64,000 bases of DNA from NCBI GenBank assembly GCA_037379345.1, contig CM074512.1:47389597-47453596 (forward strand), given 5' to 3'. This document shows, piece by piece, positions 6,146 to 62,686 of the stretch. Made by a program: the position numbers and the translations under genes. This stretch comes from Perna viridis (Eukaryota). The notes under the pieces are model-generated. The model worked only from the letters and a program-made list of their open reading frames with translations, had not been told where the DNA came from and did not search any database. Position 1 is the stretch's first letter. Every line of letters begins with the position of its first letter.

Positions 6146-6399
6146 TGTTATTAATTTTTGTGATTTGATTTCGATTGGGAGGGGTTTGCGAATTGCTCGG
6201 AGCAAAAGTTTTAGTCCTGGATGATTTAACATACATTGTCGTCCTCCCTTTTTATTTCAAATTTGATTATACCCCCCCCCCCCCATAATTGCCCCCTGAT
6301 GATGTTTTGTGTGTTTTCATGGTCTATTCTTAGTCCCCGGATGAATATCCTATTTCTGGTTCTAACCATAATCTCATTGCTTTCACGTTCTAAATAAGA

Positions 6400-9300
6400 A
6401 TGATTCATAGCCAAAGTACTAAGTAAGGGAAATGTTTGTGGTGTATTCTACTCGGTCTAAATATAGCCCCGCCAGGTAAATTTTCTATAGCTTGCATGAC
6501 AATTTTTTCGCTTGCTCATTTACTTTGCCAATATCCACCCTCAACAAGACATGGTTCATCAAAGAAATCACGTTCAAAGCAAACTCGATGTTGAGGATCG
6601 CTTTCCTTTGGCTCCGGTGGAAACAAAAATACACTCCACGATGGCGTTTGGAAAATGTACTTCTCTACACCTGTCATTCCAAATTTGATGAACTGTTTTG
6701 TGCTTTCTACGTTTGCAATCCTATGATCTTCAATGTTGAAATTCACCATTGCGGCATTCATAAATACGGCATCAAAAGCATTGCATAATGCATTGTAGAT
6801 GTCTGGGGCAATTCCTGCTCTGTCCTGTGACAAATCCGAGATTACCACGTTGACTCTTGTCGAATAATTGCATTTCCATAGATTGTATCGCCTCATGTTT
6901 TCTTTGATTCGCCCAAGACCATTCGCCTCCGTTATCTCTCGGACCATGCAATAAAGGCGTGCATTTGTTTGCTCAAGTAGCTCAGACAATAAATATGCTC
7001 CAAAGAAACCAGTGACCCCAGATATCAAAACGTTTTTGGGATACTTATGGTTGCTATTAGCAGTACACGAAGAAAGGTAATGACATTGGGTTGTTCTTCG
7101 TGTTTCATGCTTTAAATATAAAACTGAGTCTAATTTTGCATCCTTAAGAATCAATTCTCGTAGGTCGTGTTTTTCCTTTGTAGTGCATTGAGACGTTTTC
7201 CTAAAGATATCCTTTTTGTGTTTTATGACTTCAGCAAATTCGTCGATTGTATCTGCTCTGTCCAAGTCTGTGAACGAAATTTGTACGAGTAAATTTTCTT
7301 TAAGTAGTCGTTGAAGGAGTACTAAATGTAACGAATTTTCTCCTAGCTCGGTGAATGAGCTCTGTCGATGAAGAGTGTAAGCAAATGATTCTCCAAATTG
7401 CAGAAGACTACACCACATCTTGGCGATTGACAGCTGAATTTCATTGAGATAACTAGCTCTTACGTACTGCTGTTCATGTACCGACTCATCTTTTTCTAGT
7501 AGTTTTCTATCAATTTTTCCGTTGATTGTCATAGGATAGTCCGTTATCTCGATTTCTTGATGTATGTCGGTATCATGTAATTTGGTACGACTTTCACGAG
7601 ATATTCTCTCAGTTCACTCAGTGAAAACGAATGAAGACGAAACATATGCTGCGATGCTCAGTTCTTTAAGCTTCTGGCATCTATGTACAACTACTACAGC
7701 CATGTCGATTTTAGGATGCTTAAGAAGAACGTATTCAAGTTCAATCTGGTTGACCCTTTGACCTCTTATCTTAATCATATCATCTAATTGTCCAATATAT
7801 GTCAAAGTACCATCCTCATCCTGAAACGCATGATCTCCTGTCTTGTATAAAAGCATGTCACCAGTTAACGATTTCTTGACGAATTTTTCATCGTTGTAAT
7901 GACTTGCGTGTCCAATATAACCTTTAGACAGTCCTCAACCTCCTACATATATCTCACCAACGACACCAGGAGGAACCGGTTGATGAAAGTCGTCAAATAG
8001 GTGAACATTTGTACCTGGTATAGCTTTTCCGATAGGGATATATCTATTCACATCTTCGTGATATAAGCGCTTTGTGAACTCGTAGCTTGTAACACGAACT
8101 GTCGTTTCTGTGGGACCATACGCATTAAAGAATTTGATTTTCCTATTTGTTGACGTCCATTTAACAGCAGTGTTAAGCGTGCAAGGCTCTCCAGCTGTAA
8201 TTACTTTCTCTACGTAAGGCAGGTCAGTCGGTTTGTAAACGTTTATTGCTGAAGGTGGCAAAGTAATTACATTTACGTTGAGCCTTTTCATGGACACTAG
8301 AAATTCTTGGCCAAGTCGCTCGTGTTCACGTAGAACAGCTAATGTTGCCCCAGACAAAAGAGCTGTAAATATTTCAGATATGGTTGCATCAAATCCAATT
8401 GAAGCAAACTGTGCTATGATATCATTTTCTTGTAAATTCCAAAGTTTAATCTGTGCCTTTGCGAGATTGACAATGCTTGATTTAGTAACCTGTACTCCTT
8501 TTGGTCTGCTTGTTGATCCTGACGTATATATGATGTAACCAATGTCATCGTCTAAAAGCGTCATAGAGGCCCGATCTTTCGTATTACACGGTGATTGGTA
8601 ACTGGTTTCTTGTTCGAATTTTACCATTATCAATTTTTCTTCTCCAACCAAACCGACTAGCGTTTTAGTGTTTTTCATTTTAGAAAAATCTGTCGTATCA
8701 TATTTTTCTTCAGTTGTTAACAGAATGGTTATCTCGGCATCTATCATTGTGAATTCTAATCTTTCCAGTGGGTAGTCAAATGGCAGTGGTAAATATGTTT
8801 TGTTGGAATGTATTGACGTTAGTACAGAAATAACAGGCCAAAGAATTTGGTAAATGTAATGCAATAACTTTATTTCTGGTTCAGTGACAGAGCAAGATTC
8901 TTAATCGCAGCATAGCATTCTTCGTAGGTCATGTCACATTTACTAGAAGTAACTGCTTTGTTGTTAGGTGTAGCCTTGCACTGATTTTCAAAGACTGTAA
9001 ATAGTGGAACATGTTGAAAATCGCTGTAGTTTGAAATTCGATAAAGTTTTTGCAGTTCATCTTGTGTAACCATTGACACTGACAGAAGGAGAATGTTGCA
9101 CTCTTGGAGGACAATTTTTCCATATTCGCTTACTAATGCGCTATCATTTAAACATCCCAGGACGATGTTATGGTGTGGTACTTTTTTTTTCTGATTCCGA
9201 GTTCTGGGTATCGATAGAACATATCGATTAGGAAAGATTTGGATGAATAATGCTTCTTCAGTGATTCATAACATAAATTCAGAATTGAAGAAAGTTCATC

Positions 9301-9602
9301 TCGGATGTTGATTTTGAATAATCCTGTACCAATACCAGGGTACGGGGATAGTGTTTCGTTTGGTATCTCATTTTCATCCGCCAGGATACCTACACAAACG
9401 GTCTTCACACAGCAGATGCGCGCCATGAACGCAAGGAATGCTGCTGATAAAAAAATCTTCATACTGTTAAATTCTACCGAAAGAGGGATTGGTGGAAATG
9501 AAAGTGCTGCTTTTTGAGGTTTACCTCAGTTGATACGTCTATAATTCCCTCTACGCCATTCATGCGTTGCCGGAGGAATGTTGTGGGCTCATAAGACGCC
9601 AT
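6400..9602 (-). pseudogene. Intronless NRPS-like reductase (partial C-like region / adenylation / PCP / terminal NAD(P)H reductase), copy 1, disrupted
   Basis: A-domain motifs YTSGSTSRPKG, FDATISEIF, NAYGPTETT, GEIYVGG*GLSKGY, YKTGD, DDMIKIRGQRV and NGKIDRK; PCP FTELGENSL; reductase GVTGFFGAYLL, YCMVR and GYWQSK (YxxxK). ORFs 8864-7935, 7856-7614 and 7532-6516 share one frame split by TGA stops, with more frameshifts and stops between 9602 and 8864. Putative ATG at 9602 (MASYEPTTF). Confidence 0.9.
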
Positions 9603-10496
9603 TTTGTTTCTCCAATATTGTCCCCTTTTCCCTTACTTAAGCTTAACTCACAATGTTAAATTCGACACACCTGTGTACATTCAATGATCTTTGTAAATGT
9701 TCGGAACTGGACGTACACCATCAATATTTGCGAACGTCACAAGAAGAGATACACTTGCAGTGATAAATATTAAAGTGTCATCTACAATATGGCGTCTGAT
9801 GTCTTGCAGCGTTCATTGATGTATAAGAAGCTTTGGCATTGATTAAAATGAAAAGGATTCAGCACAAATAATATGTTTTAGGCATGCAATAGAGTCCTCG
9901 AAATCCTTCGTTCTTGCTATGGTAAATCGCTGACTTATCCTGCAGTCTAGCGCTGTGGTGGTATCGTGGCTTTATCCTTAATTGATAATCAAATAATAAC
10001 GATCATTTTCGGTTACGTCATAATGTCGATTACTCCGAGATCGTGTGACATCTTTTTTTACAAAAAGGCAGTTTTTCATCCTGAAGAAACATTTTGCAAA
10101 TATGAAGTTCTCAACATGAGATTTAATCAGGTAAATAAAACAAAGAGAGAGAAAAGTTAAAAAGATGCCCAATTCTTGAATCCTTATATTCCTTCATTTA
10201 ACAATTTGTTAGTTCCTCGATGTTTCCTCACTGGTGTTTTGATTAAATTATAAGAGTAATAACTATGAATTATGATGAATGTAGCCCAAGTCTATACGGT
10301 TACGTAATCATGTAAATGTATGAAAGAGTTTTTTTGATGGGAAAAACTATTATGAAATATTGAACGTATAATTAATTTTAATGTATCAAAATAAATGCCA
10401 GTGTACAAACAATCATTCAAATCCTATAACAAAGGTTAAAAACACAAAAGAAAAAAGGCTTATGATGGTAAATTTTCTTTGTATATGTATTTTAGA

Positions 10497-17199: not shown

Positions 17200-18694
17200 A
17201 TGGAATGACTCATAGCCAAATTACTATGTGAGGGAAATGTTCGTGGTTTATCCTGTCTTTCGAACCATGAGTTTTTCGTTTAAAAAATATAGCATTTATA
17301 TTGCTTTCCTTTGGATCCGGTGGAAACTAAAACAAACTCAAATATGACGTTTGGAAGATGTACATCTGTACACCTGTCATTGCAAATTTGATAAATTCTT
17401 TTGTGTTTTCTACGTTTGCAATTCTATGATCTGCGTAGTTTGTGTTGAAATTCGCCATTGCGGCATTCATATAATAGTATACGGCATCAATCGCATTGCA
17501 TAATGCATTGTAGATGCCTGAGACAATTCCTAGTCTGTCCTGTGACAAATCCGAGATTACCACAGTGACTCTTGTCGAATAGCTGAATTTCCATTGATTG
17601 TATTGCCTCATGTTTTCTTTGAGTTGCTCATGACCACGCGCCTCTGTTGTCTCTCGGACCATGCAATAAACGCGAGCGTTTGTTTGATCAAGTAGCTCAG
17701 ACAGTAAATATGCTCCAAAGAAACCAGTGATCCCATATATCAAAACGTTTCTAGGATACTTAAGGTTGCTATTAGCAGTACACAAAGCAAAATAATGACA
17801 TTGAGTTGTTCTTCGAGTGTCATACTTTGAATATTAAATTGAGTCTATCTGCATCTTTCAGAATCAATTCTCGTGGGTTGTGTTTTTCCTTTGTAGTGCA
17901 TTGAGACGTTTTCCTAAAGACATCCTTTTTGCGTTTAATGACTTCAGCAAATTCGTCGATTGTATCTGCTCTGCCCAAGTCTGTGAACGAATTTTGTAGG
18001 CGTAAATTTCTTCAAGTAGCCGTTGAAGGAGTACTAAATGTAACAAATTCCCTCCTAGCTCGGTGAATGAGCTCTGTCGATGAAGAATGTAGGCAAACGA
18101 TTCTTCAAATTGCAGAAGACTACACCACATTTTGGCGATTGACAGCTGAATTTAATTGAGATAACTAGCTCCTACGTACTGCTGTTCATGTATCGACTTA
18201 TCTTTTTCTAGTAGATTTCTGTCATTTTTTCCGTTGATTGTCAAAGGATAGTCCGTTATCTCGAGTTTCCTGATGTATGTCGGTATCACATATTTTGGTA
18301 CGACTTTCGTGAGATATTCGCTCAATTCGTCCGTGAAAACAAATAAAGGTGAAACATAAGCTGCAATACTATGTTCTTTAAGCTTCTGTCATCTATGTAC
18401 AATTACTAGAGCGATGTCGATTTTAGGATGCTTAATAAGAACGTATTCAAGTTCAATCTGGTTGACCCTTTGACCTCTTATCTTAATCATATGATCTAAT
18501 CGTCCAATATATTTCAATGTACCATCCTCGTCCAGAAATGCATGGTCTCCTGTCTGTATAAAAGCGTGTTACCAGTTAAAAAAATATTCTTGCTGAATTT
18601 ACCATCGTCGTAATGTCATGCCCAATGTAAGCTTTATACAGTCCTAATCCTCCTACATATATATATCTCACCTACGACACTAGGAGGAACCGGT
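17200..18694 (-). pseudogene. NRPS-like reductase, copy 2 (end of A domain, PCP, reductase), 5'-deleted
   Basis: Colinear with 6392-7980: YVGGLGLYKAY, GRLDHMIKIRGQRV, FTELGGNLL, GITGFFGAYLL, NFNTNYADHR; frameshifts present; fused at 18694/18695 to sequence matching 9944 onward. Confidence 0.9.
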
Positions 18695-20074
18695 AGTCTA
18701 GCGGCTGTTGTAGTAACGTGGCTTTATGTTTACTCGACAATCAAATAATGCCGGTCAATTTTGGTTACATCATAATGTCGTTTACTCCGAGATCGTGTGG
18801 AAACTTTTTCACAAAAAAAGCAGTTCCTGAAGGAACATTTTGCAAACATGAAGTTATCAGCATGAGATTTAATTAGGTAAATAAAACAAAGTTAGAAAAA
18901 GTGTTGAAAAGGCCCAAATTCTTGGATCCTTATTTTCCTGCATTTTAAACCACATTTTAACATTTTTTTGTTCTTCAATGTTTCCTCATCGGTGTTTTGA
19001 TTAGATTATAAGAGTAATGACCATGAATTATGTTGAATGTAGGCTAAGTCTATACGGTTACACAATCATATTAATGTGCTTAAAGATCTTTTTACGTGAA
19101 AATGCATTGTTATAAATTATCAAACGTTTACTTGTTCACATAACTGTAATACAGAAATCATTCTACTATATATAAATCAATTTGTACATCATTGGTCACA
19201 AAGAAAACGTCTTAAACAAAAGGGTAATCATTGACAAGCTAGGGTTTCCAATATTGTTATTGATGAAGCAAACTATGTGTCTTAGCGGGGTGATGGCTTC
19301 CTTGAACAATATCTGGACATTGTACAAGTAAGGTCACTTGTTTCCAAAAGCACTGTTTGCAACTGTAAAAGTTAAATAAAGAAAAGGATAATTAAATTAC
19401 TTCGTATGATATCCTGTGAGCTTGTTTAGGGTATCGATAATCTAATATTAAACTTGGGGTAAGAAGAAACCTGGTGTATTTGGTGGAAAAAGTAGCGGAT
19501 TTATACGATTCGATCTCTTGATGGAAAAAAAATTGGACAGTAAAATAGAATTTTTTTTCCAAAACAGAGGTAATTAAAATGGCGTTGATGTGATCATGAG
19601 ATACTCCAGCATTGCTCCAGGTTGTCTGGCAAGCTATTTCCGTCTTGTTACCAGCAATGCTTTATGCTTTTTCTGAATTGGTTGCCTGGAGCATCTGACA
19701 TGTTGAAAGTCACCGCAAATTTGTTTAGATCAAACACGTGTGTTAAAATATTTTATGTCTTTTGAAGTTTAACCTACTGGTAATTAAGAGAAAACATCAT
19801 TAAATTTGGTTAAATCCAAAGTTTTCAAAGTGGCCATCCATTTTGAACAAGGTCACTAGTTTTACGGATGCAAAGTATTTTTGGCGAAACGAAACTGTAA
19901 TTGGTAAGGAAATTTAATGGCTTATTCTAAATTTTCGTCTTGCAACTAAAAATGCGCAAATTTGTTAACCGGATGTTACAATGCAAATTGCTGAAAATCG
20001 AATGTAAAGTTCATTTAAACTGCTTTTGCAAAGGATTTCCAGAATTGCAGGTGTTTTCTTATCAGGTAGTATTT

Positions 20075-22076: not shown

Positions 22077-25000
22077 TCACTTAAGAGATTTCTGTTTGAC
22101 TAGAAGTCCTGTTACAAAAATAATAACCGCGATAAATTCACAAGCTGCCATGAAGTAGAAGGACGTCACATAAGTTCCTGTTACATCTCTCAGATACCCT
22201 ATAAAAGACAGGATTTTATTCAAACTAATTGAAAGCCACAGACATTATTATACAAGTTGAGATGAGAAATAATTGGAAGGGTATAGTTCAAGTTATTAAC
22301 TTGTTAACTGATATAACAAAATTACATAATTGCATGAATTTCTGTTTTTTTTTCAATTTTGAATAAGATAGGGTAAATATTTGCTTTAATGATAATTTGA
22401 AAACCCCAATAAAAAGTTTAAAAGAGCTATAGTTTATCATTTTCCGCTATTTCGTTAATTCTGTTACATGTATGTGCTAGTTCACACTGTAGATTTGCAC
22501 TATAAGGATATGTAATATTTTAAGTGGTTATACTTTTTCCATCCTATATAATATTCTGACAAAACTAGATCACTTAGTATAAAATCATATGCAATTTCTT
22601 GCTTTATTTAGGTCGATCCATGCTCATGTTTTAGGCATCGTTGCAAAATATGTTTGTACTACTATGCTCATGTCAAGCTCCAACTTAATTGTTTCTTGTC
22701 TTTGTTAAGTTAATAAAATTTAGCGAATGAAGACACACTACTTATTTCATTGGCAATTTAACTAATACTTAATAGTAAATAGGTTTCAGTGCTAATTATA
22801 GCTTGTTACACACATTATTTACCTATTAACGGCGCAGATGTTCCCAGTGATAAACCTTGTCCTAAAATAAGGATTCCCATTGCAGACCTGAAGTTTTCGA
22901 TACCAAGAAAATCAGCAACAACTGACGGTGTCATGGCAAAAATTCCTCCAGCACACAGTCCCGCTGTTATTGCTAGAAGAATAAAATGCCAGTATTCTGT
23001 GTAAAACGGTGAGATAGCTAAGCAAATACCAGTAGCAGCCATGGTTATTATAATTGCTTGGTGATTTTTCACAATGTTTCTATCGGTAATTATTCCATTA
23101 AGCAGCCGTCCTAGGAAGTCTGATGCATTTACGAGGGACACCAAGCTTGCAACTTTTTCTGCACTGACTCCTTGGTCTTTTGCAAATGGGGCAATGAATA
23201 TGATAATGTATGCAGAGCCAATGCTTCCAAAAAAGAAAACAATCAGATAAACTGGCATAAACCAATTTTTGAAGAGACTTAAATCAACCAAAAACTTTAA
23301 CTTTTCAGTACAATTGATGGATGCTTCACTTTCAAAAGAATCTTGAGAACTACATAGGTCAGTCCGTAGTTCAGTAAGAGATATACTGGCCATGTCACTT
23401 TCGCCTAACAAACGGGTGATGTTAGAGCTCGATATTTTATCTAAAAATCCTGTCAATGATCCAGAATGTTTCTGACATTCTAAATTTTGATCAGAAATGA
23501 AAGTTTTTTGCATATCGTAAAGGTCATTTCTCTTGTCTGATTGGTTATGCTGACTTTCACTATAACTTCTGTCCCTTTCTTTTCTTAACAATGGCTTTTG
23601 TAACACTTTAGTGTCGCCCTTGGCTCTAAATTGTAATACAATATTTTCTTTTCTGTCGTTCAATTGGTCTTCAGAATCTTTCTCCCGTGGTCCAGCAGGA
23701 TATGTTTTTGAAACTTTCGGTCGGAGAAGGAGAGCAAATACGATAATATGTAGCTGTATTCCCCCAGTTATTAACATGCCACCGCGGAGTCCATATTCTT
23801 TGATTAGATACGAATAAATTGGCGGGAAAATAAGTCCACCAAAACTAAACCCAGCAACTACAATAGCTTGTGCCAAGTTACGTCTTTTTACAAAGTACAG
23901 TCCATTGAGGTAGGTAAGAGGTCCGTGTGTAAAACCAAATGCAATTCCTGCAAATAAAACTAACAGTATGTAGCTTATGAAATATAAAAAAATTCTAATA
24001 AACAATTAGAAAATTTACATTCTTTGATATTGTTCTTTGAACTAACACAATCTCTGATTCGTTCTTTTCTTTTGTAAAATCTCTATGTGTATTCTATTTC
24101 TTTCGGAATCCAATTAAAGCAGACGTTTTTTTACAACATTCATCGTTCATAAACAGCGTCATTCTTGACAAAAAAATCAGTTTCTATTATACATGGAATA
24201 GACGAACTAGTATACCATAGCCAATGACCCACTGATGACTGAACGAATCTTACCAATCATAACTCCGTTGGTAATGATAAGAATTCCAACAGATCCAGCA
24301 AAACTCCCAGAGATGAAGGCAAGACTTGCAAGTAAACCTGTGATGGTACAGAACTGTCTTGTGGAGAAATAACGTAAACCAATAGTCATTGTCGGCAATG
24401 CTGAAGAGGATACAAGGAAGTGTGATCAACAGTTAGTCAGAAAGTAACTTTTTTTGTATTTTCATTGGTTTTGTTTTGAATTGACCACATTTTATTCCTT
24501 GTTTTTGATATTACATTGCAAATTGTTAATAGTTGTTATTTACTTTTTAAGTTAAAGTAGAATTTTTTCTTAAAAAGGTGAAAGTTTTACTAAAATACCA
24601 GTAACACAAAGACTTACAGAGTATACTATAAGTTCCCTGAAGAACACCTGGAATAACAGCAGTTACGGACGACTGAGCCCCAAATTCATCTACGAATCCA
24701 TTGAAAAACACACCAAACCCTTTTATTATAGCACCAAATGTACAGAAAAGGCAAGCAGCAGCTGAAATTGAAAATTATAAAGACTTTCAACTGAAATTAT
24801 AACGTCCATTGCATGTTTTGGCATGTTTTATTTTACTTTTCATGATGTTAGAATGTCCGGAAATGACATATAAATCCCATGAAAGGCCATTTGTTGATCT
24901 AAAATCTCACTACGTATTTAATATGAATTTAGGCTATGCCTATTATGGACAGAGTGCATTCTTTGTTTACGATAAAATCGGTCATGTTGTTATGGGCGAA

Positions 25001-36044: not shown

Positions 36045-39000
36045 TCATGAGCTCATAGGAACAAAACTCATCACAAGTCCCCCGATAACAAGCACAGAAC
36101 CAATAGCATAGAATGTAACATTGTAGTTTCCTGTTAGACCATAGACCATTCCTGAAAGAAATTTATTTACTTCATAATTAAAACAACGCATAGAAACAAA
36201 ACAGAATGAAAAACGAATGAATAGCAATCGGGAAAACTACAAAGAAAAGGCATCACGCACTCAACTAAAGAAAAAAAATACAACTCAAACAGATACCACA
36301 AACCTACCACAACAAAGTTGTGCACGGACCAGGTACAGGGTAGTCGTGCTGTCTTATAAAGACTCACCGTGTTGTATCTTTTCTAGAATGATCCACCATG
36401 TTGCTTTTGCCATGAACGGCTTAAAGTGGACAAGCTAATGAAGAATGAGGAGTACACCTCTTACTGTGACTGATATATATATATATAGTGTAAGAATTCA
36501 AAAATGACAAAAGTTCATTTACATTGTAACCATAGAACTTTTGAAATGGTGACCTGCTTGGTTACACAACCTGCATTCCTAAAATAAGTTTAAAACGGTT
36601 CAAATTATTCATGTTAACACGGCATTATCATTAACATACATCGACTTTTTTTCCAGATGTCCGGGATTACCGTACGGTCACACGAACTTTTTTAAAAAGT
36701 AACAGTATGATAATTCTTTTAACAGCAAAATATATTTAAAACAAAACCGTAAGGAAGTATGAGCTTAATTCGATTTCTTACCTACACCAGGCGGTCCTAT
36801 AAACGACGCTATTCCTTGGAACCATAAGGTAATTCCTACTGAATCTGTGACCTGGTCCGTTTTTACAATATCCATCAACAAGACGATATAGAGACAATTA
36901 AATACACCTACATGAAATAGCAAGTAAAAACAAAAACAATTTAAAAAATATAAAACCAATAAATAATCATTACTATAATAAAAAAAAAACTGAGCGCTAC
37001 TGGTGAAAATATCGAATTTAGGATGCACAAGGAACAAATTGACTCAGAAAACAGGTATTTTCGGGTGAAATAGAATATAAGTGTTTTTAATCTAAAAAAA
37101 AAAGACGTCTTATGTGATTTTATCTTTCACTCTTTTAAAATAGACAGAAAAAGCAGACAAAACAAAATAAAACAAAAGGATGACATGTAGATTATCCGAC
37201 TAATAGTTTTAAATCAATATTGAAAATGTAAGGACCATTTAGATGCCGTTTTATTCATAACAGTTTGGTTCAATGAAGCAATGAAAATACTTTCATACCA
37301 CTGAAGCATTGACCATATAGGTTCTTACTACTTAAGCAATTAACATAGTTTCTTACCACTGAATATCCCATACATTGCTGCGTATGTGACCAAATACGGA
37401 ACACTATCGTTAAGCGGGCTAGCTATTGTAACAATTCCACTGATGACAACGGACACAATATATAAACACTTTCTGTTTACAAAAGGTCGATCAGATAGCC
37501 AACCAGATGCCACACGACCGAATATATTCGAGAATCCTATGACAGAAATGAAAAGCGCTGCCTCTGATTTAGTTCTTCCCTTCTCAATAGATCGGTCTGG
37601 TAGATAAATATATGGAGAGTTCAACCCAAGAACAACAAAAAAGCATGATGCGACAAATACTAGAAAAGCAGGATTCTTAAATACTGTAAAATCATAAGAG
37701 TTAAGTATTGCTCTACGCAATTTTTGACAAGGATTTTTACTAGCAGAATGTGTAATTTCAATGTGATTTTCGTATAAACAGATGTTTTCTTGAATCAATG
37801 AATTACTTTCATCTTTTGTGCTATCAAATTCTTTCACTAATTCTTTCGGAATTGCACTATCTTCATTTTTCCATGACTGTTTTACTTTAGTCCGATTTTC
37901 CATCACGAGCCTTTTCCGTAGCTGCTTTTTATTTAAATACCTTGTTTTTCCACTTATAAGACGAGAAGATCTCAAAGGTCTAAGAAGTGCTCCAACCAGT
38001 ACTATATTTAGAATAATACCGCCAATAATTAGTGAGGTGCCTCTCCATCCGTATTCTAACAAAAGTCTTTCCACCATTGGAGCACATACAAGAGTTCCAA
38101 CCCCTACACCACAAACTGCAATTCCCATAGCAAAGGATTTTCTCTTGTCAAAATAAATTCCAACACTAACTACAAATGGGATAAAAGCTAGACCCATACC
38201 AAGACCTGAAATATAATGAAATAAGAAATAATTTGAAATTGAAAATTCAATGGAAGAATAATCAAGGGAAGGTTATAGAGGTAATCAAAGAGTAATCAAG
38301 GGAACCAAGGTTATAGCGGTAATCAAAAGAATGTAATCCGGGGACAAAGACCAGACATGAAAGAGTAATCAAGGAAACCAAGGTTGGAGCGGTAATCAAA
38401 AGAATGTAACCCAGGGACAAAGACCAGACATGGAAGAGTAATCAAGGAAACCAAGGTTTTAGCGGTAATCAAAAGAATGTAACCAAGGGACAAAGACCAG
38501 ACATGGAAGAGTAATCAAGGGAACCAAGGTTATAGCGGTAATCATAAGAATGTAATCCAGGGACAAAGACCAGACATGGAAGAGTAATCAAGGAAACCAA
38601 GGTTATAGCGGTAATCAAAATAATGAAACCAAGGGACAAAAGGTCTATATGATGAAATGTATAATTATTCATTCCAATCTGTCTGCTCTTAGGAAATAAA
38701 CCACATGGAAATTACCAATAGTTTCTATTGTATTTTAGTGTTATTTACAGAGTTATCTCCGTTAATTTTGAATTCTACAGTAAATTCTATATAATACGCT
38801 CCCCAAGGAAGCGTGTATGGTTGTATTATCAACTTGGTTCTGTATACTTATGGCAAGAAAAAGTATCAATATCCGGTTTGTACCTGCATTTTCAGGAGCT
38901 GAAAAACAGCATAATGGCAGCTTCATTTGCGTATACTTGTATATGTGCGATTGAGCGCCAAACCAGTCTCGGAAAATATTTGCTAGTTTCGATAATTAAA

Positions 39001-40548
39001 TACAAATCGAATCATAGTTTTTCCAAGATAGGGTTGGCCTTATATTCTGCAGTATGGCCCCCGGATGTTTACGAAAATTACGTTATCAATATTACCCATA
39101 ATTCTCGGGTCATAAAAATTGCAAAACGAAAATGAACCAGAACGAAGCGAAAATAATCAATAAAAGAAAGAATTGAAACGAAACAATTCGATGAAATGAA
39201 TCAAATCGTAATAAAAACATTATTAAACTATACTAAATGAAACAGAATGCAGCAAAACTAAGTACAATAAAAGAAATCTTTTAAGACGTTTCGCAAATTT
39301 TAAGAACCATAATGTTAACCAGTGCCGGACAATTCGATCCAAAGCCATTTCGGACCACGAAAACCAATAATTCTTTATGAATGCCGCACATTTCGGCCAA
39401 TAGACATATCAGACCATGACAATTAGTATAATGCTTTAGGGCAAATATATATCATTACAAAATTTACTATACTTGAAGGTATAACATATCAAATAAGAGC
39501 TGACAAAAAAATTGTTTTTATTAATGTTTCTTGGGGAGCGTTAAAAGGTTTCACTTTCATCATATTATTTATCTCCTATGAATAAGGGTTATATGAAAAG
39601 CCACATGTTAATTTCTGTTTACTATGACATTCTTATGTGGAGTGCTACTTAATAAGAACTAGCGTAAAAACTAAATATGTTGTACCTGAAACAACACCCA
39701 TTGATATATACAGGAAATAGATATTCGTGGCAAAACTACTTGTAATGTAACCTGTAGCAGCAATCACAGAACCAGTAATGCTTGTCACTCTACTGCCGTA
39801 TCGGTTACACATAAAACTGGATATAGGACCTATGAAAATACATAACAAATAATAATATATAATAAATATGCAAATTTGTTTACTTCTGAAACAACTATGG
39901 TAAAGAGATTTATTAACTTGTAGCTGTATATTGAGTTAAAATCTAAACTCAAACGCTTTAATATTACTATAACACTTATACATTGGTGAAACTGCCAACA
40001 TAAAAAATAAAACTTCTATCTGTATTATATGCTAATTCAACGAAAACATATTTGTTTTCTTGAAAAAACTGAAAATGGTACATGACATCAGCGAATGGTT
40101 ATTCCTTTTAAGGACGTAAACAATATTGTTGAACCCTTCCCTGAGTTTTAAGTTATGGTTGTAAATCCCATATAAATATGGACTTAATTAAATCAGTATT
40201 ATTCTCGATCTATTACATTTTAATTCTTAGGATAGTTTCTAAAAAAAAACTAAGCATATTAAATTTACTTGATATCATCAGTGTGCCGAAAGCTATTGAA
40301 CTGATCCACGATGTTTGAGATTTGCCGGTGTTCAAATCTTCTAAAAACTCCACGTACATTATACCAGTTGTTGTTAGTATTCCAAATGCAATGAAATTCA
40401 TCATGAAGGCAGCAAAGACAATAACCCAACCGTAACCTCCATCTGGTGCTGCTTGACTTCCAATGTTGATCTTGTTACTCTCAGTTGAATCTTCATTTTG
40501 GTTCTGTATATATACTGATGCATCTTTCTCATGTTCTTTTAACATCAT
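36045..40548 (-). CDS. SLC16/monocarboxylate transporter family MFS protein B, ~501 aa; exons 40548-40269, 39829-39686, 38205-37357, 36907-36782, 36151-36045
   Basis: GT-AG phase-1 junctions with an open frame. Motifs PDGGYGWVIV, NRYGSR, YFDKRKSFAMGIA, YGWRG, LLRPL, NIFGRVASGWLSD, IGPP, LTGNY. Confidence 0.92.
38289..38640 (-). repeat. ~5 tandem copies of a 73-bp unit equal to the terminus of the Penelope-like element
   Basis: AGAGTAATCAAGG starts at 38289, 38362, 38435, 38508 and 38581; the unit is the reverse complement of the last ~73 nt of the copies at 16530 and 56790. Confidence 0.9.
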
Positions 40549-45149: not shown

Positions 45150-48100
45150 TAATTAATGAGCTTTATTACCGTACGTTATACAGGTACATGCGTACGTACC
45201 ACAGAAAGAAGTGTATAACAGTGAAATTAACGGAATTCATGAAATTTNNNNNNNNNNNNNNNNNNNNNNNNNNNNNNNNNNNNNNNNNNNNNNNNNNNNN
45301 NNNNNNNNNNNNNNNNNNNNNNNNNNNNNNNNNNNNNNNNNNNNNNNNNNNNNNNNNNNNNNNNNNNNNNNNNNNNCTCGAAAATTTATTTGTGTAACAT
45401 TTTGTCAGTGTTTTGGAACAAACAGTGTATTCATGAAAATTACCTGGATGTGAACAATATCTTTTCAACCTTTCGCAAAAAGATGGAAAGGTGAGTCAAA
45501 ACTTTAATGTTACAATACTTCAACATACCGTAGAACTAATGTGGGATAGGATTCGTTCTGTAATAGGGGGGTATATACTCATTTTGTATTTCAGTGACTG
45601 AGTTGTTTGAGCAATGAGCAATGTAATGGAGTTCATTTCCAATATCAGAGCCACAGAGTGTACATATTCGTTCATTTTCTGGAATTCTATTCCATCTCCC
45701 TGTCTCGATAGGGATTTTTAAATTACAAGTTCTTGCCTTACATATATATAATCTACTTGCTTCTTTAAGACGTATAAGGTATGACTCAAAACAAAATTCA
45801 GTCTTGAAATTGGAATAATATTTCCCTCTCGAGGAATTATCAGTATCAGGGAACCACTTCTGAATAAACTGGTCTTGAAGACGCTGTTTTACAATATCTT
45901 TTAAAGCATTTAATGTATAAAAGTTTACATTATCCCATATCTCACTCATGCTAATATTGTCAAAAATAGATTTTACGAAGCTAATCCACTTCAAAGAACG
46001 ATTACCGTTTGCGTATAAACTATATAATAGGTCACATAATTTTCCAGAAAGCTTATTTTTATTGATCATAAGCTTATACCAAAAACAAACCATACGCACC
46101 TTGATATTAGTTTCTAGAGGGTATTTTCCAAGTTCTCCATATATCATAATATTTGGCGTTGAAGACCGCACGCCAAGTATCTTTTTGCAAAATTGCAAAT
46201 GGATTTTCTCAATGCTTGAAAGATTTTCGAAGCCCCATACTTCAGAAGAATAAGTAAGAATAGGGGTAACTAGAGCATCAAATAATCTAAGTTGAAGGTC
46301 TATTGGAATGTGCGAGTTGCGTATTTTATGGTATAAAGCATACATCGCCTTTTGAGCTTGATTAATAAGTTTATCCCGGGCTTTACAAAAGCGACCATTA
46401 AAATTGAATAATAGCCCAAGATAAGTGTACGAATCACACTTTTCTACATTATCATTAAATAAGGTAAAATGAAAATTACATTGACATCTTCTATTACAAA
46501 AAATTACAATTTTAGTTTTATTAGTATTAACCATAAGTTTCCAGGAAGTACAATAGGATTCAAACACTCGAAGTGAGTTTTGTAATTCTTCTTCCGTATC
46601 AGCAAAAATAACTGTATCGTCTGCATAAAGTAAAATGAAAAGTTTCAAATATTCACCAAGTCTATCAAAAAATACAGAATCTAGAAATTGTAAATTGGAA
46701 CAAGAATTTTCATCTAGATAACTTTCTAAGTCGTTGAGATAAACGGAAAAAAGAAAGGGAGATAATTTCTCCCCTTGCCGTACACCAATTTCACATGTAA
46801 AATAATCAGTTTTTGATTCTCCATAGTGAACACATGACTTAATATCTGAGTACATATTATATATCAATCTGAACATCTTCCCATCTATACCCGATTTTAA
46901 TAGTTTTTGATATAACCCTACCCTCCAAACTATATCAAAAGCCTTCTTGAAATCTATGAAGGCACAAAAAAGTTTTCTGCCAGAAGAAAGATACAAAGAT
47001 ATAAGAGAGTGTAAAACAAAAGTGTTGTCTTGAACAGAGAATCCCTTTCGAAATCCGCCTTGTGCTTGAGTTATAAGTTCTAACTCATCAGCAAATGTAT
47101 TAAGTCTAGTGTTCATAATAGAGGTAAAAACTTTACCAGGGTTTGACGTTAAACAAATTGCTCTATAATTATCTAGGCCATTCTTATCACCCTTGTTTTT
47201 ATAGACAGGTTTAATAATTCCTGTGAGCCAGGCATCAGGAATTGTACCACTATCAAATACATGGTTAAAAAGCTTATTGTAAATCGGTAACATCAAATTT
47301 AACGTACTCTTAATGTATTCATTAACAATGCCATCTTCAGCAGCTGCTTTAGAATTTTTCAAACTTTTTACAGCAGAAATAATCTCGTCATCAGTTATAT
47401 CAAAATCTAACATATTTACAATACTTGGATCGATCATTTGATCAATGTCAAACTCATCATCATCATTTGGATTTTCATTTAACGATTTAAAATAATTGTA
47501 CAAAGTATCAACTGAAATATTAGCCTCGTCTGATGTTTTGTTATGCTTTAATTTATTCAATATTTTCCACAGACCTTTAGGATTTGTTTTGGAGGTTTTT
47601 CTAAGTTCAGCCTCCATTTTATGTTTGTAGTTATTGTATGCTTTATTCATGTTTTGCTTGTATTCCTTGCTCGCTTTTTTAACCTCATTTCTGTTGTGTA
47701 GGTTTTTGATGAAGCTGTAGCGATTGCGAGCCTTGTGAAATTTTTGACGTGATTCATGACATTCTCCATTGAACCAAACCTGAAATGTTTTGTGTGGTGC
47801 ATATTTTTTGTGGTTGTGTTTCTTGCTAAATGCATGAGTCGCTGCCTTTTTGAACAGGCCACCGATGGAGTTAACAATATCATTGACTATGTTTTTTCCA
47901 TCTTGACCAGCGTCATTCAGGTCATTTAATTTTTTATTGATTTCGTTGATTGTCTCAATGTCATCTTGCACTACTTCAACAAACCGGTTTTCTTTGTTTG
48001 TGTTCCACCTAGGAATTCGTGTAGCTTGTTCGTGGTGTGTATCGTTGGAATGTGTAGTAAAATTATTCATTGTTGCGTGGAAAGTAAATTGTAAAGCATT

Positions 48101-48850
48101 GTGTACATCAGAGAAAAGGGGGGTTGAACTCTAATACATTAAACATTTTTACAATTGGAATAGCACTTGAGGACAATAAAATATAATCAATTAAAGACAC
48201 ATTTTTACATGTTTTTTGACCAATCATATAGTCATTACCCATTAATCTACCATTACCAATATAGAGGTTGTTTCTCTTACAAAAATCAATTAGCTTGTAG
48301 CCATAATTATTAGCAGGTGAAATATCTTCTGAGAATCTCGAAAGAGGAAATTATAATTTTTTCAATTCTTCAAAATCATAGATATATGATCTAAAATCAT
48401 CATCATCTCCAATGTCATCCAAAATATCAAAGAGAGAATCATCAGGAATTACTACTTCATTCAAATGTCTAGTTTTTGCATTAAAATCACCAACCGTACA
48501 AACACAGCAACTATTTTTGCTTAAGATGTCAAGCATCTCATCCTCAATTTCATTAAATGCTTCACTAGATGCATATTTGGAATTTTCCGGTGATATTCTC
48601 GATAAATCACCACAATTCCACCTGATTTTCTTTTACAATTTGTTCTTATTTTTGAATTACATAAATAGCCATTTGGCAAATTTAATACATCAAGTTCGTC
48701 TGTTTTTGACTCTACAAAAATGTTTACATCATGAGACTTAACTAGTTCGATAAACTCTGGACAATTGAGTTTCGACTTCAGTCCACATACGTTCAGGAAC
48801 AAAATGTTAATATCATTCTTTTCTTCAGAGGGGGGAACAGAGACCATTTG
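45150..48850 (-). mobile_element. Non-LTR retrotransposon (APE endonuclease, RT, C-terminal Cys/His motif), RTE-X-like; RT ORF 48070-45536 open, endonuclease frameshifted
   Basis: EN fragments FLNVCGL, FVESK, GDFNAKT, LIDYI and SDVH; RT motifs NYRAICL, QGGFRKG, FIDFKKAFD, GVRQGEKLSP and LLYADD; YGELG and IETGRW...CTLC...HY..C. Clade assignment is from recalled motifs only. Confidence 0.9.
45248..45376. other. Assembly gap
   Basis: Run of 129 N. Confidence 0.99.
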
Positions 48851-49217
48851 ATTTCATGTTTGGAAAAGGGAGAGTTCAGGATGTTTCCTAAATCACTAAT
48901 GGGTCCAGTAGGTAAGGTGAAATCAAAAATTGCAACTGTAGAAATGAATTGAGATTGTGGTGAGGCCGATGGTATTGAGGACATGGTAGGTTGTGACTAT
49001 AAAAATGGGGTTAAAAGCTGTAGTGTTTGGAAACACAAATCTTGTGCAGACGCTATGTATAGTTTATTACTCAAACACCATAATACTATAGTACAGAGAA
49101 CAAATTCAATACTATTTACATAGATATATAATATACATAAGAAGTTGATTAGTGTACATGTATTGGAAGGAATAATATTGAGTCATGATGAATTTCTATA
49201 TACATAAATTTAGAGAA

Positions 49218-60818: not shown

Positions 60819-62686
60819 ATAGTGGCATGTAGAGTAGTACATTAAAGGCTTTTCGGTTGGTTTCTGTGTATAAGTCTTAACATGCCTCGTAAAAACAGAA
60901 TAACGGAAAATCTAAATTATGTATTTTTAAACATTACATTGTTTTAAAAAGTTATTACGGTGCATACATTAGATGACTGTTTTGACAGCATTGAATATAA
61001 TTAACCTTTCTTTTGAATTATTCTTTAGCATCAAACAGAGTTTCAGACTCCGCTTTGGAGCGAGCTTGTTACGTCACGAGATTTCTTCTCGCTGACAACA
61101 GAGACATACGAAACGCTTTCTATAAACGCGCAGGAAGAGTTGCCGTGATTGGGCATGACGAGGACACACTAGATATACCAGAACACGAAGTACCTAGTTA
61201 TTGGACAATGAAGAAGTTACGTGGTCTAGGAGCCACTGTCTCACACCCTGTTTCGTCAGCAGGAGAAGAAAATCTTCTATGTTTCAAAAATAATGACAAA
61301 TATCCAAACGAAGACAGGCTCCTTCATGAATTAGCTCATGGCATACACAATCTAGGGGCAAAGTACGCATTAAACGGATGGCATCTAAGATTAGAGAAAC
61401 ATTTCAACACAATTAAAGAAAGTGACTTGTGGAAGGAAACACATGCAAGAAGTACTGTATACGAGTACTTTGTAAGTTGTTTTACTTTGAAACATGTTTA
61501 CATTGATCATTTCAAAGATTTGATATTGTGTGCATTTCAATCTCTTAAATCAACGTCTGATTTAATCATTATTTTTCAAAAGGCAAAGCTGTCAGGTAAC
61601 CATTGCTGTTTCTATGCACGCCTTATATTTTCACTTGACAAAAGAGACAAATGATCGTTAAGGTTGTAAGTACATTCTCTAATTTCATGACACTCGACAT
61701 TAATTTATTTATTATCTAAAATACTTTTAGACCTGTTAAGTACGAAACATGACCTAATGCGTATTAATGAGTGTTTACACTGACTTTTGACTGAATACGA
61801 AAAGCAACATTTTCCTCTCATATTTTAAATGTACATGTATGTCATTTTACAAGTGACCCCCGTTTTGAAATTGATTAATTGAATAGTTTTTGCCTACGCA
61901 GCAGCAATTCCCTCTTTTCGTCCCATTCATATACCACAGCCTTTATACAAATTAAGGAGGTAGGCCTAGGGTAAGGGACATAACTTATGAAATCAGTGAT
62001 ATATTTGTATCATACTCAATTTCACCAAAGGCTATCAAGCTTTCATTTGAAGGAGAATATAATGAATCCAAGTTAATTAGATGCTTACATAAGATTGTTG
62101 TAAAATGGTGAATACAAACGTTCCAATGATTTTTAAGAGTTATGTCCCTTACCCTAGGTCTACCTCCTTAATCTATAATAAGAAAAAGCTTCTTTTAAAT
62201 TTTAGGCAGAAGGTGTTCAGAGCTATTTCAATGACAATGGTTTCAGCGACCCTCCGAATGGTTTTGACGGCACTATCAACACAAACAAAAAACTGAAAAG
62301 CTACGACCCAAAACTTTTTGAACTGATTCAAGAAGTGTTCCCCTGCAACAATGATTACATTAATAGATGCAATTCAAACAGAGGTGAGAGGGATTTTTTT
62401 TCACGTTTCTACGTATGTAACAATTAAATGCTGTTCATATTATACAAGTAAGCAAATTAAAACCTCAAATTGAAGACATCGTTCCTGGGAACTTTTTGAC
62501 GGGTCGAAACCAGGTTCCGATATGATTTATTAATATTGCAATTTTGTCTTTCATACGAATTTGTTATTATCAATACTTGTTAATATGATTTTGGTTTTGT
62601 CTATGAGGGACGCAGATATAAGCACTGAACGCCTTGTTGATTAACGAAGTTAGTTCCACATTTCAAAATCTGCTTTCCATAATGAA

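Follow-up and report, generated by a model that had tools for sequence, protein, structure and literature searches.

A decayed, truncated duplicate of a mollusc fmt-atr gene in Perna viridis and the predicted tyrosine-type pocket of its intact parent

In the genome of the mussel Perna viridis, an A-domain pocket typical of nonribosomal peptide synthetases is encoded, in pieces, on the minus strand of a 64,000-nucleotide stretch of contig CM074512.1 (referred to as the window). The locus raises the question of which amino acid the enzyme selected, what product it released and whether the gene is still functional. A sequence-only reading of the window had assigned the pocket to tyrosine or phenylalanine and proposed an ancestral reductase that released an amino-aldehyde. 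As outlined below, the pocket region is very probably part of a non-coding, truncated duplicate of an FmtATR gene. For the intact parent, the prediction is that L-tyrosine is activated, N-formylated and released as N-formyl-tyrosinol.

The pocket is defined by the following positions, numbered according to GrsA.

8094..8390, minus strand: pocket codons 235-331 of the A domain, encoding D, A, S, T, I, A, A, V and R; the parent differs at 331 only (TGC Cys to CGT Arg)
Pocket codon first bases, minus strand: 8390 GAT, 8387 GCA, 8378 TCT, 8264 ACT, 8201 ATT, 8195 GCT, 8123 GCG, 8099 GTT, 8096 CGT
7515..7517, minus strand: A10 lysine codon AAA (INGK), the equivalent of K517

In an alignment using HMMER, the best solved-structure match of window 8061-8546 (minus strand) was GrsA PheA (1amu_A, E 3.5e-26). 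Upon counting by hand from GrsA residue 183 along this alignment, D235, A236, W239, T278, I299, A301, A322, I330 and C331 pair with D, A, S, T, I, A, A, V and R, respectively, and no gap adjoins any pocket position. The structure-based check thus returned the same residues as the earlier manual alignment, i.e., the code D-A-S-T-I-A-A-V-R(-K) was read correctly from the interval 8085-8400. The lysine was assigned via the NGK motif rather than via the 1AMU alignment, and its codon at 7517 is found outside this interval, behind a TGA at 7937-7935. Because the A-domain open stretch 8900-7938 matches AMP-binding with E 1.2e-47 and the pocket region is 86% identical over 220 amino acids to the intact paralogue, the match is not due to chance.

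The gene to which the pocket belongs is broken into the following segments.

6454..9790, minus strand: pseudogene copy 1 of fmt-atr, parent codons 319-1492 of the 1657-codon frame
7938..8900, minus strand: longest open stretch, 321 codons, A-domain core with the P-loop YTSGSTSRPKG
7935..7937, minus strand: premature TGA inside the A domain (TTA in the parent); the X3 contig 7751-7996 spans the site without a difference
6519..7613, minus strand: open stretch covering the T domain (GENSL, GGNSL in the parent) and the leading part of the thioester reductase domain (GVTGFFG)

Six-frame translation of the region between about 9790 and 6454 yields a fragmented A-T-R gene, which comprises the end of the Fmt region, the linker, A, T and the first two thirds of R. 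Parent codons 1-318 and 1493-1657 are absent, i.e., both ends are missing. Copy 1 is identical to the intact coding sequence at 2885 of 3332 aligned bases (87%; dN 0.10, dS 0.33), and it harbors 10 frame-shifting indels (two of which offset each other and may be an artefact of the alignment), three in-frame gaps (141, 3 and 6 nt) and five in-frame stops, two of them beside an indel and at least three firm. In the reductase region, the frame reads YWQSK and then ends at a TGA at 6518 (minus strand). Copy 1 lacks the uninterrupted Fmt-A-T-R reading frame of a functional FmtATR.

For comparison, we used 44 homologues of FmtATR-like architecture with at least 48% identity (19 named molluscs and 25 unnamed), taken from the best 120 of 5490 matches. 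Among the covered positions that are near-invariant, i.e., identical in at least 42 of these 44 homologues, 27 of 262 are changed in copy 1, including Cys331, the P-loop Gly (replaced by Ser) and the Gly that precedes the T-domain Ser motif. Residue changes that could be polarised fall mainly in the pseudogene (136, compared to 14 in the parent; 68 are unassigned). The lesions were checked in contigs from two DNA runs of two different studies (X3 and X5), which cover 30 and 28, respectively, of 30 bins at copy 1. No variant is listed in these contigs at R331 or at the TGA at 7937-7935, and a 1-base deletion at 9182 is found in both. This agreement shows that the lesions are real, being neither assembly errors nor private to the assembly. 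No reads of the RNA runs X21 and X22 map to copy 1, but these runs likewise have none on the intact coding region. Judged from its lesions, copy 1 is a dead gene, a pseudogene that represents ordinary gene debris.

A search of the genome (723 Mb, 46 contigs) gave one close relative of this fragment, located on the same contig at a distance of 9.2 Mb.

G000:C2:56,591,812-56,641,264 (about 50 kb): intact bur-ox cluster composed of fmt-atr (minus strand), p450 (minus strand), act (plus strand), fmo (plus strand) and fmo (plus strand)

This parent gene is a 1657-codon open frame (1616 amino acids from the first Met) with an intron-free coding region and the Pfam order Formyl_trans_N, AMP-binding, AMP-binding_C, PP-binding, NAD_binding_4, which gives a single protein of about 180 kDa with Fmt-A-T-R organization. 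It is identical to Mytilus californianus LOC127698786 at 1255 of 1606 residues (78%, full length), and its best database match among those listed is a M. californianus protein (79% over the searched region). Within 45 kb upstream are found a P450 gene, a methyltransferase-fold gene, for which relatives from scallops, clam and abalone carry the name isonocardicin synthase-like, and two FMO genes; the fmt-atr gene is thus clustered with act, p450 and two fmo. Assignment to FmtATR is based on the architecture, the cluster and the identity to Mytilus proteins, by which the parent locus is the mollusc bur-ox cluster described in PMC11869996, found here complete and intact. In a genome search with the best candidates scored, the Fmt region gave a single match and the end of R gave one full match in addition to 34 residues from copy 1, so that a single intact fmt-atr gene is apparently present. 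Of three RNA runs with the same species label, reads on the parent coding region are found only in X23, at a depth of about 1-2 in scattered bins and mostly in the orientation that minus-strand RNA would give in a stranded library. Just upstream of the intact gene (L006:700-7900), a 2-kb unit is repeated about four times in tandem; the repeats of which it is built are also found in the window. Resurrection of the ancestral enzyme, one option suggested earlier, is not needed, given an intact parent in this genome and a published family.

Comparison to the parent also settles the identity of the residue at position 331. Nine of the ten pocket codons are identical in the parent and copy 1, while the tenth is TGC in the former and CGT in the latter. 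The sequence-only reading had noted that CGT is one transition away from a Cys codon; the codon itself was correct, but with TGC in the parent two transitions are required, and TGT is possible only as an intermediate between the two. That Cys331 is ancestral, as had been supposed, is supported by its presence in 44 of the 44 homologues (from the best 120 of 5490 matches). Because the parent reads DASTIAAVCK and Cys331 is retained throughout this set, Arg331 reflects decay. A pocket code taken from a pseudogene should be checked against the parent gene.

The window harbors a second copy of the fragment, from which the pocket has been deleted.

17300..18694, minus strand: pseudogene copy 2, a tandem duplicate of copy 1, codons 981-1445, with 5 frameshifts and 5 stops
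9944..10373, unstranded: upstream flank common to both copies (copy 2 18695-19133, 78%), absent at the intact locus
6398..6449, unstranded: downstream junction flank common to both copies (copy 2 17203-17254, 87%)

The upstream flank, common to the copies and not to the parent, marks the tandem duplication, and because the downstream junction flank is also common to both copies, the 3' truncation predates this duplication. Both truncations are older than the tandem duplication. On the terminal branches (392 shared codons), the N/S counts are 29/15 and 54/19, where the neutral expectation is 2.8; the corresponding omega values of about 0.69 for copy 1 and 1.01 for copy 2 do not differ from neutral (p 0.23 and 1.0, respectively), which is why both branches fit neutral evolution, and copy 1 shows no purifying selection. 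Along the stem common to both copies, 27 changes are derived, three are parent-derived and eight are unclear. Several of these stem changes hit positions kept in 42-44 of the 44 homologues (from the best 120 of 5490 matches), which indicates that decay began before the tandem duplication. A truncated fragment thus arrived, underwent one tandem duplication and decayed in both copies, and it was probably dead from insertion or soon after.

In an alternative scenario, a second fmt-atr paralogue was functional for a while, perhaps with a specificity altered by Arg331, before it decayed to what is now left at this locus. No stop or frameshift is common to the two copies where they overlap, and a briefly functional duplicate is therefore conceivable; furthermore, the pairwise dN/dS of copy 1 to the parent is 0.31, and several fmt-atr entries per genome are found in Mytilus species. 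However, the low ratio is explained by selection on the parent branch (on parent and stem combined, N changes number 38 and S changes 52, and the stem carries most of the residue changes), both truncations were in place before the tandem duplication, and Arg331 is found in none of the 44 homologues (from the best 120 of 5490 matches). In addition, no remnant of Fmt, act, p450 or fmo was found within 204 kb around the copies. We consider a once-functional second paralogue improbable and favor a duplicate that was truncated from the start of its history at this site.

The route by which the fragment arrived has left few marks. The parent coding region is intron-free, so that a retrocopy would have had no intron to lose, and neither a poly(A) stretch nor a clear target-site duplication was found at the fragment junctions. 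When the flanks were aligned to the parent locus, the 3' flank scored 25 (shuffles at most 33) and the 5' flank 31 (shuffles at most 30). Two MFS (monocarboxylate-transporter-like) genes and a ligand-gated ion-channel group adjoin both fmt-atr sites in mirrored order (in the window at 22818-24005 and 37343-40548, minus strand), which may be a coincidence, both families being large, or may point to an ancient paralogous block into which the copy was drawn. Co-duplication of these neighbors with the fragment was rejected: their proteins are only 24-44% identical, compared to 87% DNA identity of the fragment, and the neighbors are therefore far older. The window also contains a reverse-transcriptase open frame of 864 codons, probably a LINE (45539-48853, minus strand; RVT_1, E 9.6e-34), which adjoins a run of N at 45248-45376, and a 217-codon, exon-like open stretch without a Pfam match (61001-61651, plus strand). 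In Mytilus genomes, several fmt-atr entries and fragments are found in each (P0121-P0134), e.g., six M. galloprovincialis entries; duplication and decay of fmt-atr may be common in mussels.

The near-identity to a tyrosine code claimed earlier holds: the parent pocket DASTIAAVCK matches CepA DASTVAAVCK at nine of ten positions, and Table 1 of PMC11355689 gives the latter as the Tyr code of CepA and DAWTIAAICK as the Phe code of GrsA and TycA. A literature text search for the strings DASTIAAVCK and DASTVAAVCK gave no match; because the table in PMC11355689 prints DASTVAAVCK with spaced letters, such blanks do not show that a code is unpublished. Among the 44 homologues (from the best 120 of 5490 matches), 24 carry DASTVAAVCK and 14 DASTIAAVCK, three more are of one or the other kind with K517 not covered, and the single variants are DACTIAAVCK, DASTVAGVCK and DASTIAAICK. 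The motif DAST[I/V]AAVC is thus found in 41 of the 44 (the lysine being covered in 38), i.e., the pocket is nearly invariant, and Trp239 is found in none. In GrsA, the W239S substitution gives only an approximately threefold preference for Tyr over Phe (PMC11355689). Ser239 points to Tyr rather than Phe in this family. By sequence prediction the parent pocket is Tyr-type, and tyrosine is the best prediction for the A domain of the family. Of the earlier assignment to tyrosine or phenylalanine, the Tyr-type aromatic pocket stands, while phenylalanine as an equal candidate does not. In PMC11869996 the A-domain specificity of FmtATR is a prediction, and the conserved pocket lends independent sequence support to this step of the bur-ox pathway.

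In principle, the A domain could prefer phenylalanine, with the phenol added afterwards by the clustered P450. The code is identical to the GrsA Phe code at eight of ten positions, and the T-R didomain of the oyster enzyme also reduced an N-acetyl-Phe thioester (PMC11869996). These observations are set against the absence of Trp239 of the Phe code from all 44 homologues and the exact match of 24 of them to the CepA Tyr code (from the best 120 of 5490 matches). Moreover, ACT from Mytilus californianus catalyzes aminocarboxypropyl transfer to a phenol and, as described in PMC11869996, does not modify phenylalaninol. A phenylalanine-selective A domain is thus highly unlikely.

With tyrosine as the substrate, the A domain would select L-Tyr through a DASTIAAVCK pocket in which the small Ser239 leaves space for the para-OH group. 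The activated Tyr would be loaded onto the phosphopantetheine of the T domain, the Fmt domain would formylate the amine of the T-bound Tyr, and the R domain would release N-formyl-tyrosinol. The last step is proposed by likeness to the oyster T-R didomain, which converted N-formyl-tyrosyl thioesters to N-formyl-tyrosinol in a four-electron reduction (PMC11869996). A P450 and the FMOs would finish bursatellin/oxazinin; in PMC11869996 the P450 and FMO steps are predictions, and its authors report that an active full-length or A-T-R mollusc protein was not obtained.

The sequence-only reading had offered tyrosinol, or pyrazine and piperazine products of a free amino-aldehyde. The tyrosinol class is consistent with the alcohol formed by the oyster enzyme (PMC11869996), while the pyrazine/piperazine branch is unsupported because the Fmt domain, lost from copy 1, would cap the amine. 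For this branch the amine must be free and the product must leave the enzyme as an aldehyde; neither fits the parent. That the ancestor was a stand-alone A-T-R reductase, the free Tyr/Phe amino-aldehyde of which dimerises to pyrazines or piperazines as in fungal NRPS-like piperazine synthases, agrees with the A-T-R order in the window and with the piperazine alkaloids of fungal NRPS-like genes, e.g., herquline (PMC8403587), but is the least credible reading given that the parent has a formyltransferase domain (copy 1 itself starts within this N-terminal region, at codon 319), that a formylated amine should be unable to give an imine, that the oyster T-R product is an alcohol (PMC11869996) and that the aureusimine synthetase model scored 357 bits against a cut-off of 2500. 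An L-aminoadipate reductase, which had already been called unlikely, is rejected: the whole parent protein scored 295.5 bits with TIGR03443, the cut-off being 1030.1.

The object in the window is thus already known in kind, a pseudogene fragment of a published family, and as a decayed duplicate it has little significance alone. Among the matches listed, the identical code DASTIAAVCK is found in seven of 215 A-domain stretches of 76 other proteins, and it is therefore a widespread bacterial pocket and not a new one. Again among the matches listed, P0062 and P0065, bacterial Fmt-initiated NRPSs from JGI, have the two best A-domain scores of all proteins that are not in the mollusc set. In a quick tree of 15 mollusc-type rows and the top 45 of 207 other A-domain stretches, the mollusc-type rows share a single long branch (SH-aLRT 100) for which the tree resolves no sister group, and P0062 and P0065 are not placed as sister to the mollusc clade; the parent falls within this clade and groups with P0001 and P0002 (SH-aLRT 100). 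Ancient transfer from bacteria was already proposed in PMC11869996. Tentatively, DAST[I/V]AAVCK may have been fixed across bivalves and gastropods since a bacterial Fmt-linker-A-T starter was acquired, with P0062 and P0065, collinear over 1,180 residues, as the donor class; we regard this as possible rather than probable. If true, these proteins would offer a soluble stand-in for the mollusc formylation and Tyr-activation steps. Some entries deviate in architecture: P0104 (Pseudonocardiaceae) combines Fmt with a reductase domain and carries DAATVAAVCK in both modules, and P0066, P0088, P0092 and P0115 include a Mya homologue with an ankyrin domain and three longer homologues (one from Littorina) in which the A domain is aligned to about three quarters and PP-binding gives no match.

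Compared to known systems, the parent has the same Fmt-A-T-R order as the mollusc FmtATR, and its locus the same members act, p450 and two fmo as the bur-ox cluster (Venugopalan and Schmidt 2025, PMC11869996), a cluster that a pipeline has also recovered from mollusc genomes (PMC12833800). In contrast, the window holds two broken fragments, 9.2 Mb off, which lack Fmt, the end of R and the tailoring genes; the main text of PMC11869996 gives no pocket code and does not mention pseudogenes. The D235/A236/T278/A301/A322 frame of GrsA PheA (1AMU) is common with the window pocket, in which Ser replaces Trp239 and Val replaces Ile330, while the difference from the CepA Tyr code is Ile instead of Val at 299; relative to both codes, Arg331 is found in the pseudogene only. 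The A-T-R order and reductive release of FmtATR are also found in L-aminoadipate reductase and in the piperazine synthases of fungal NRPS-like type (LnaA, herquline pathway), neither of which is known to carry a formylation domain. The bacterial Fmt-initiated NRPSs P0062 and P0065, together with LgrA-type formylating modules, are a further comparison: P0062 is collinear with FmtATR at 32% identity from the Fmt domain through the linker and A to T (residues 19-1194), and the first A domain of both P0062 and P0065 carries DASTIAAVCK, identical to the parent, but these proteins have a second module and a thioesterase (Pfam) instead of a reductase.
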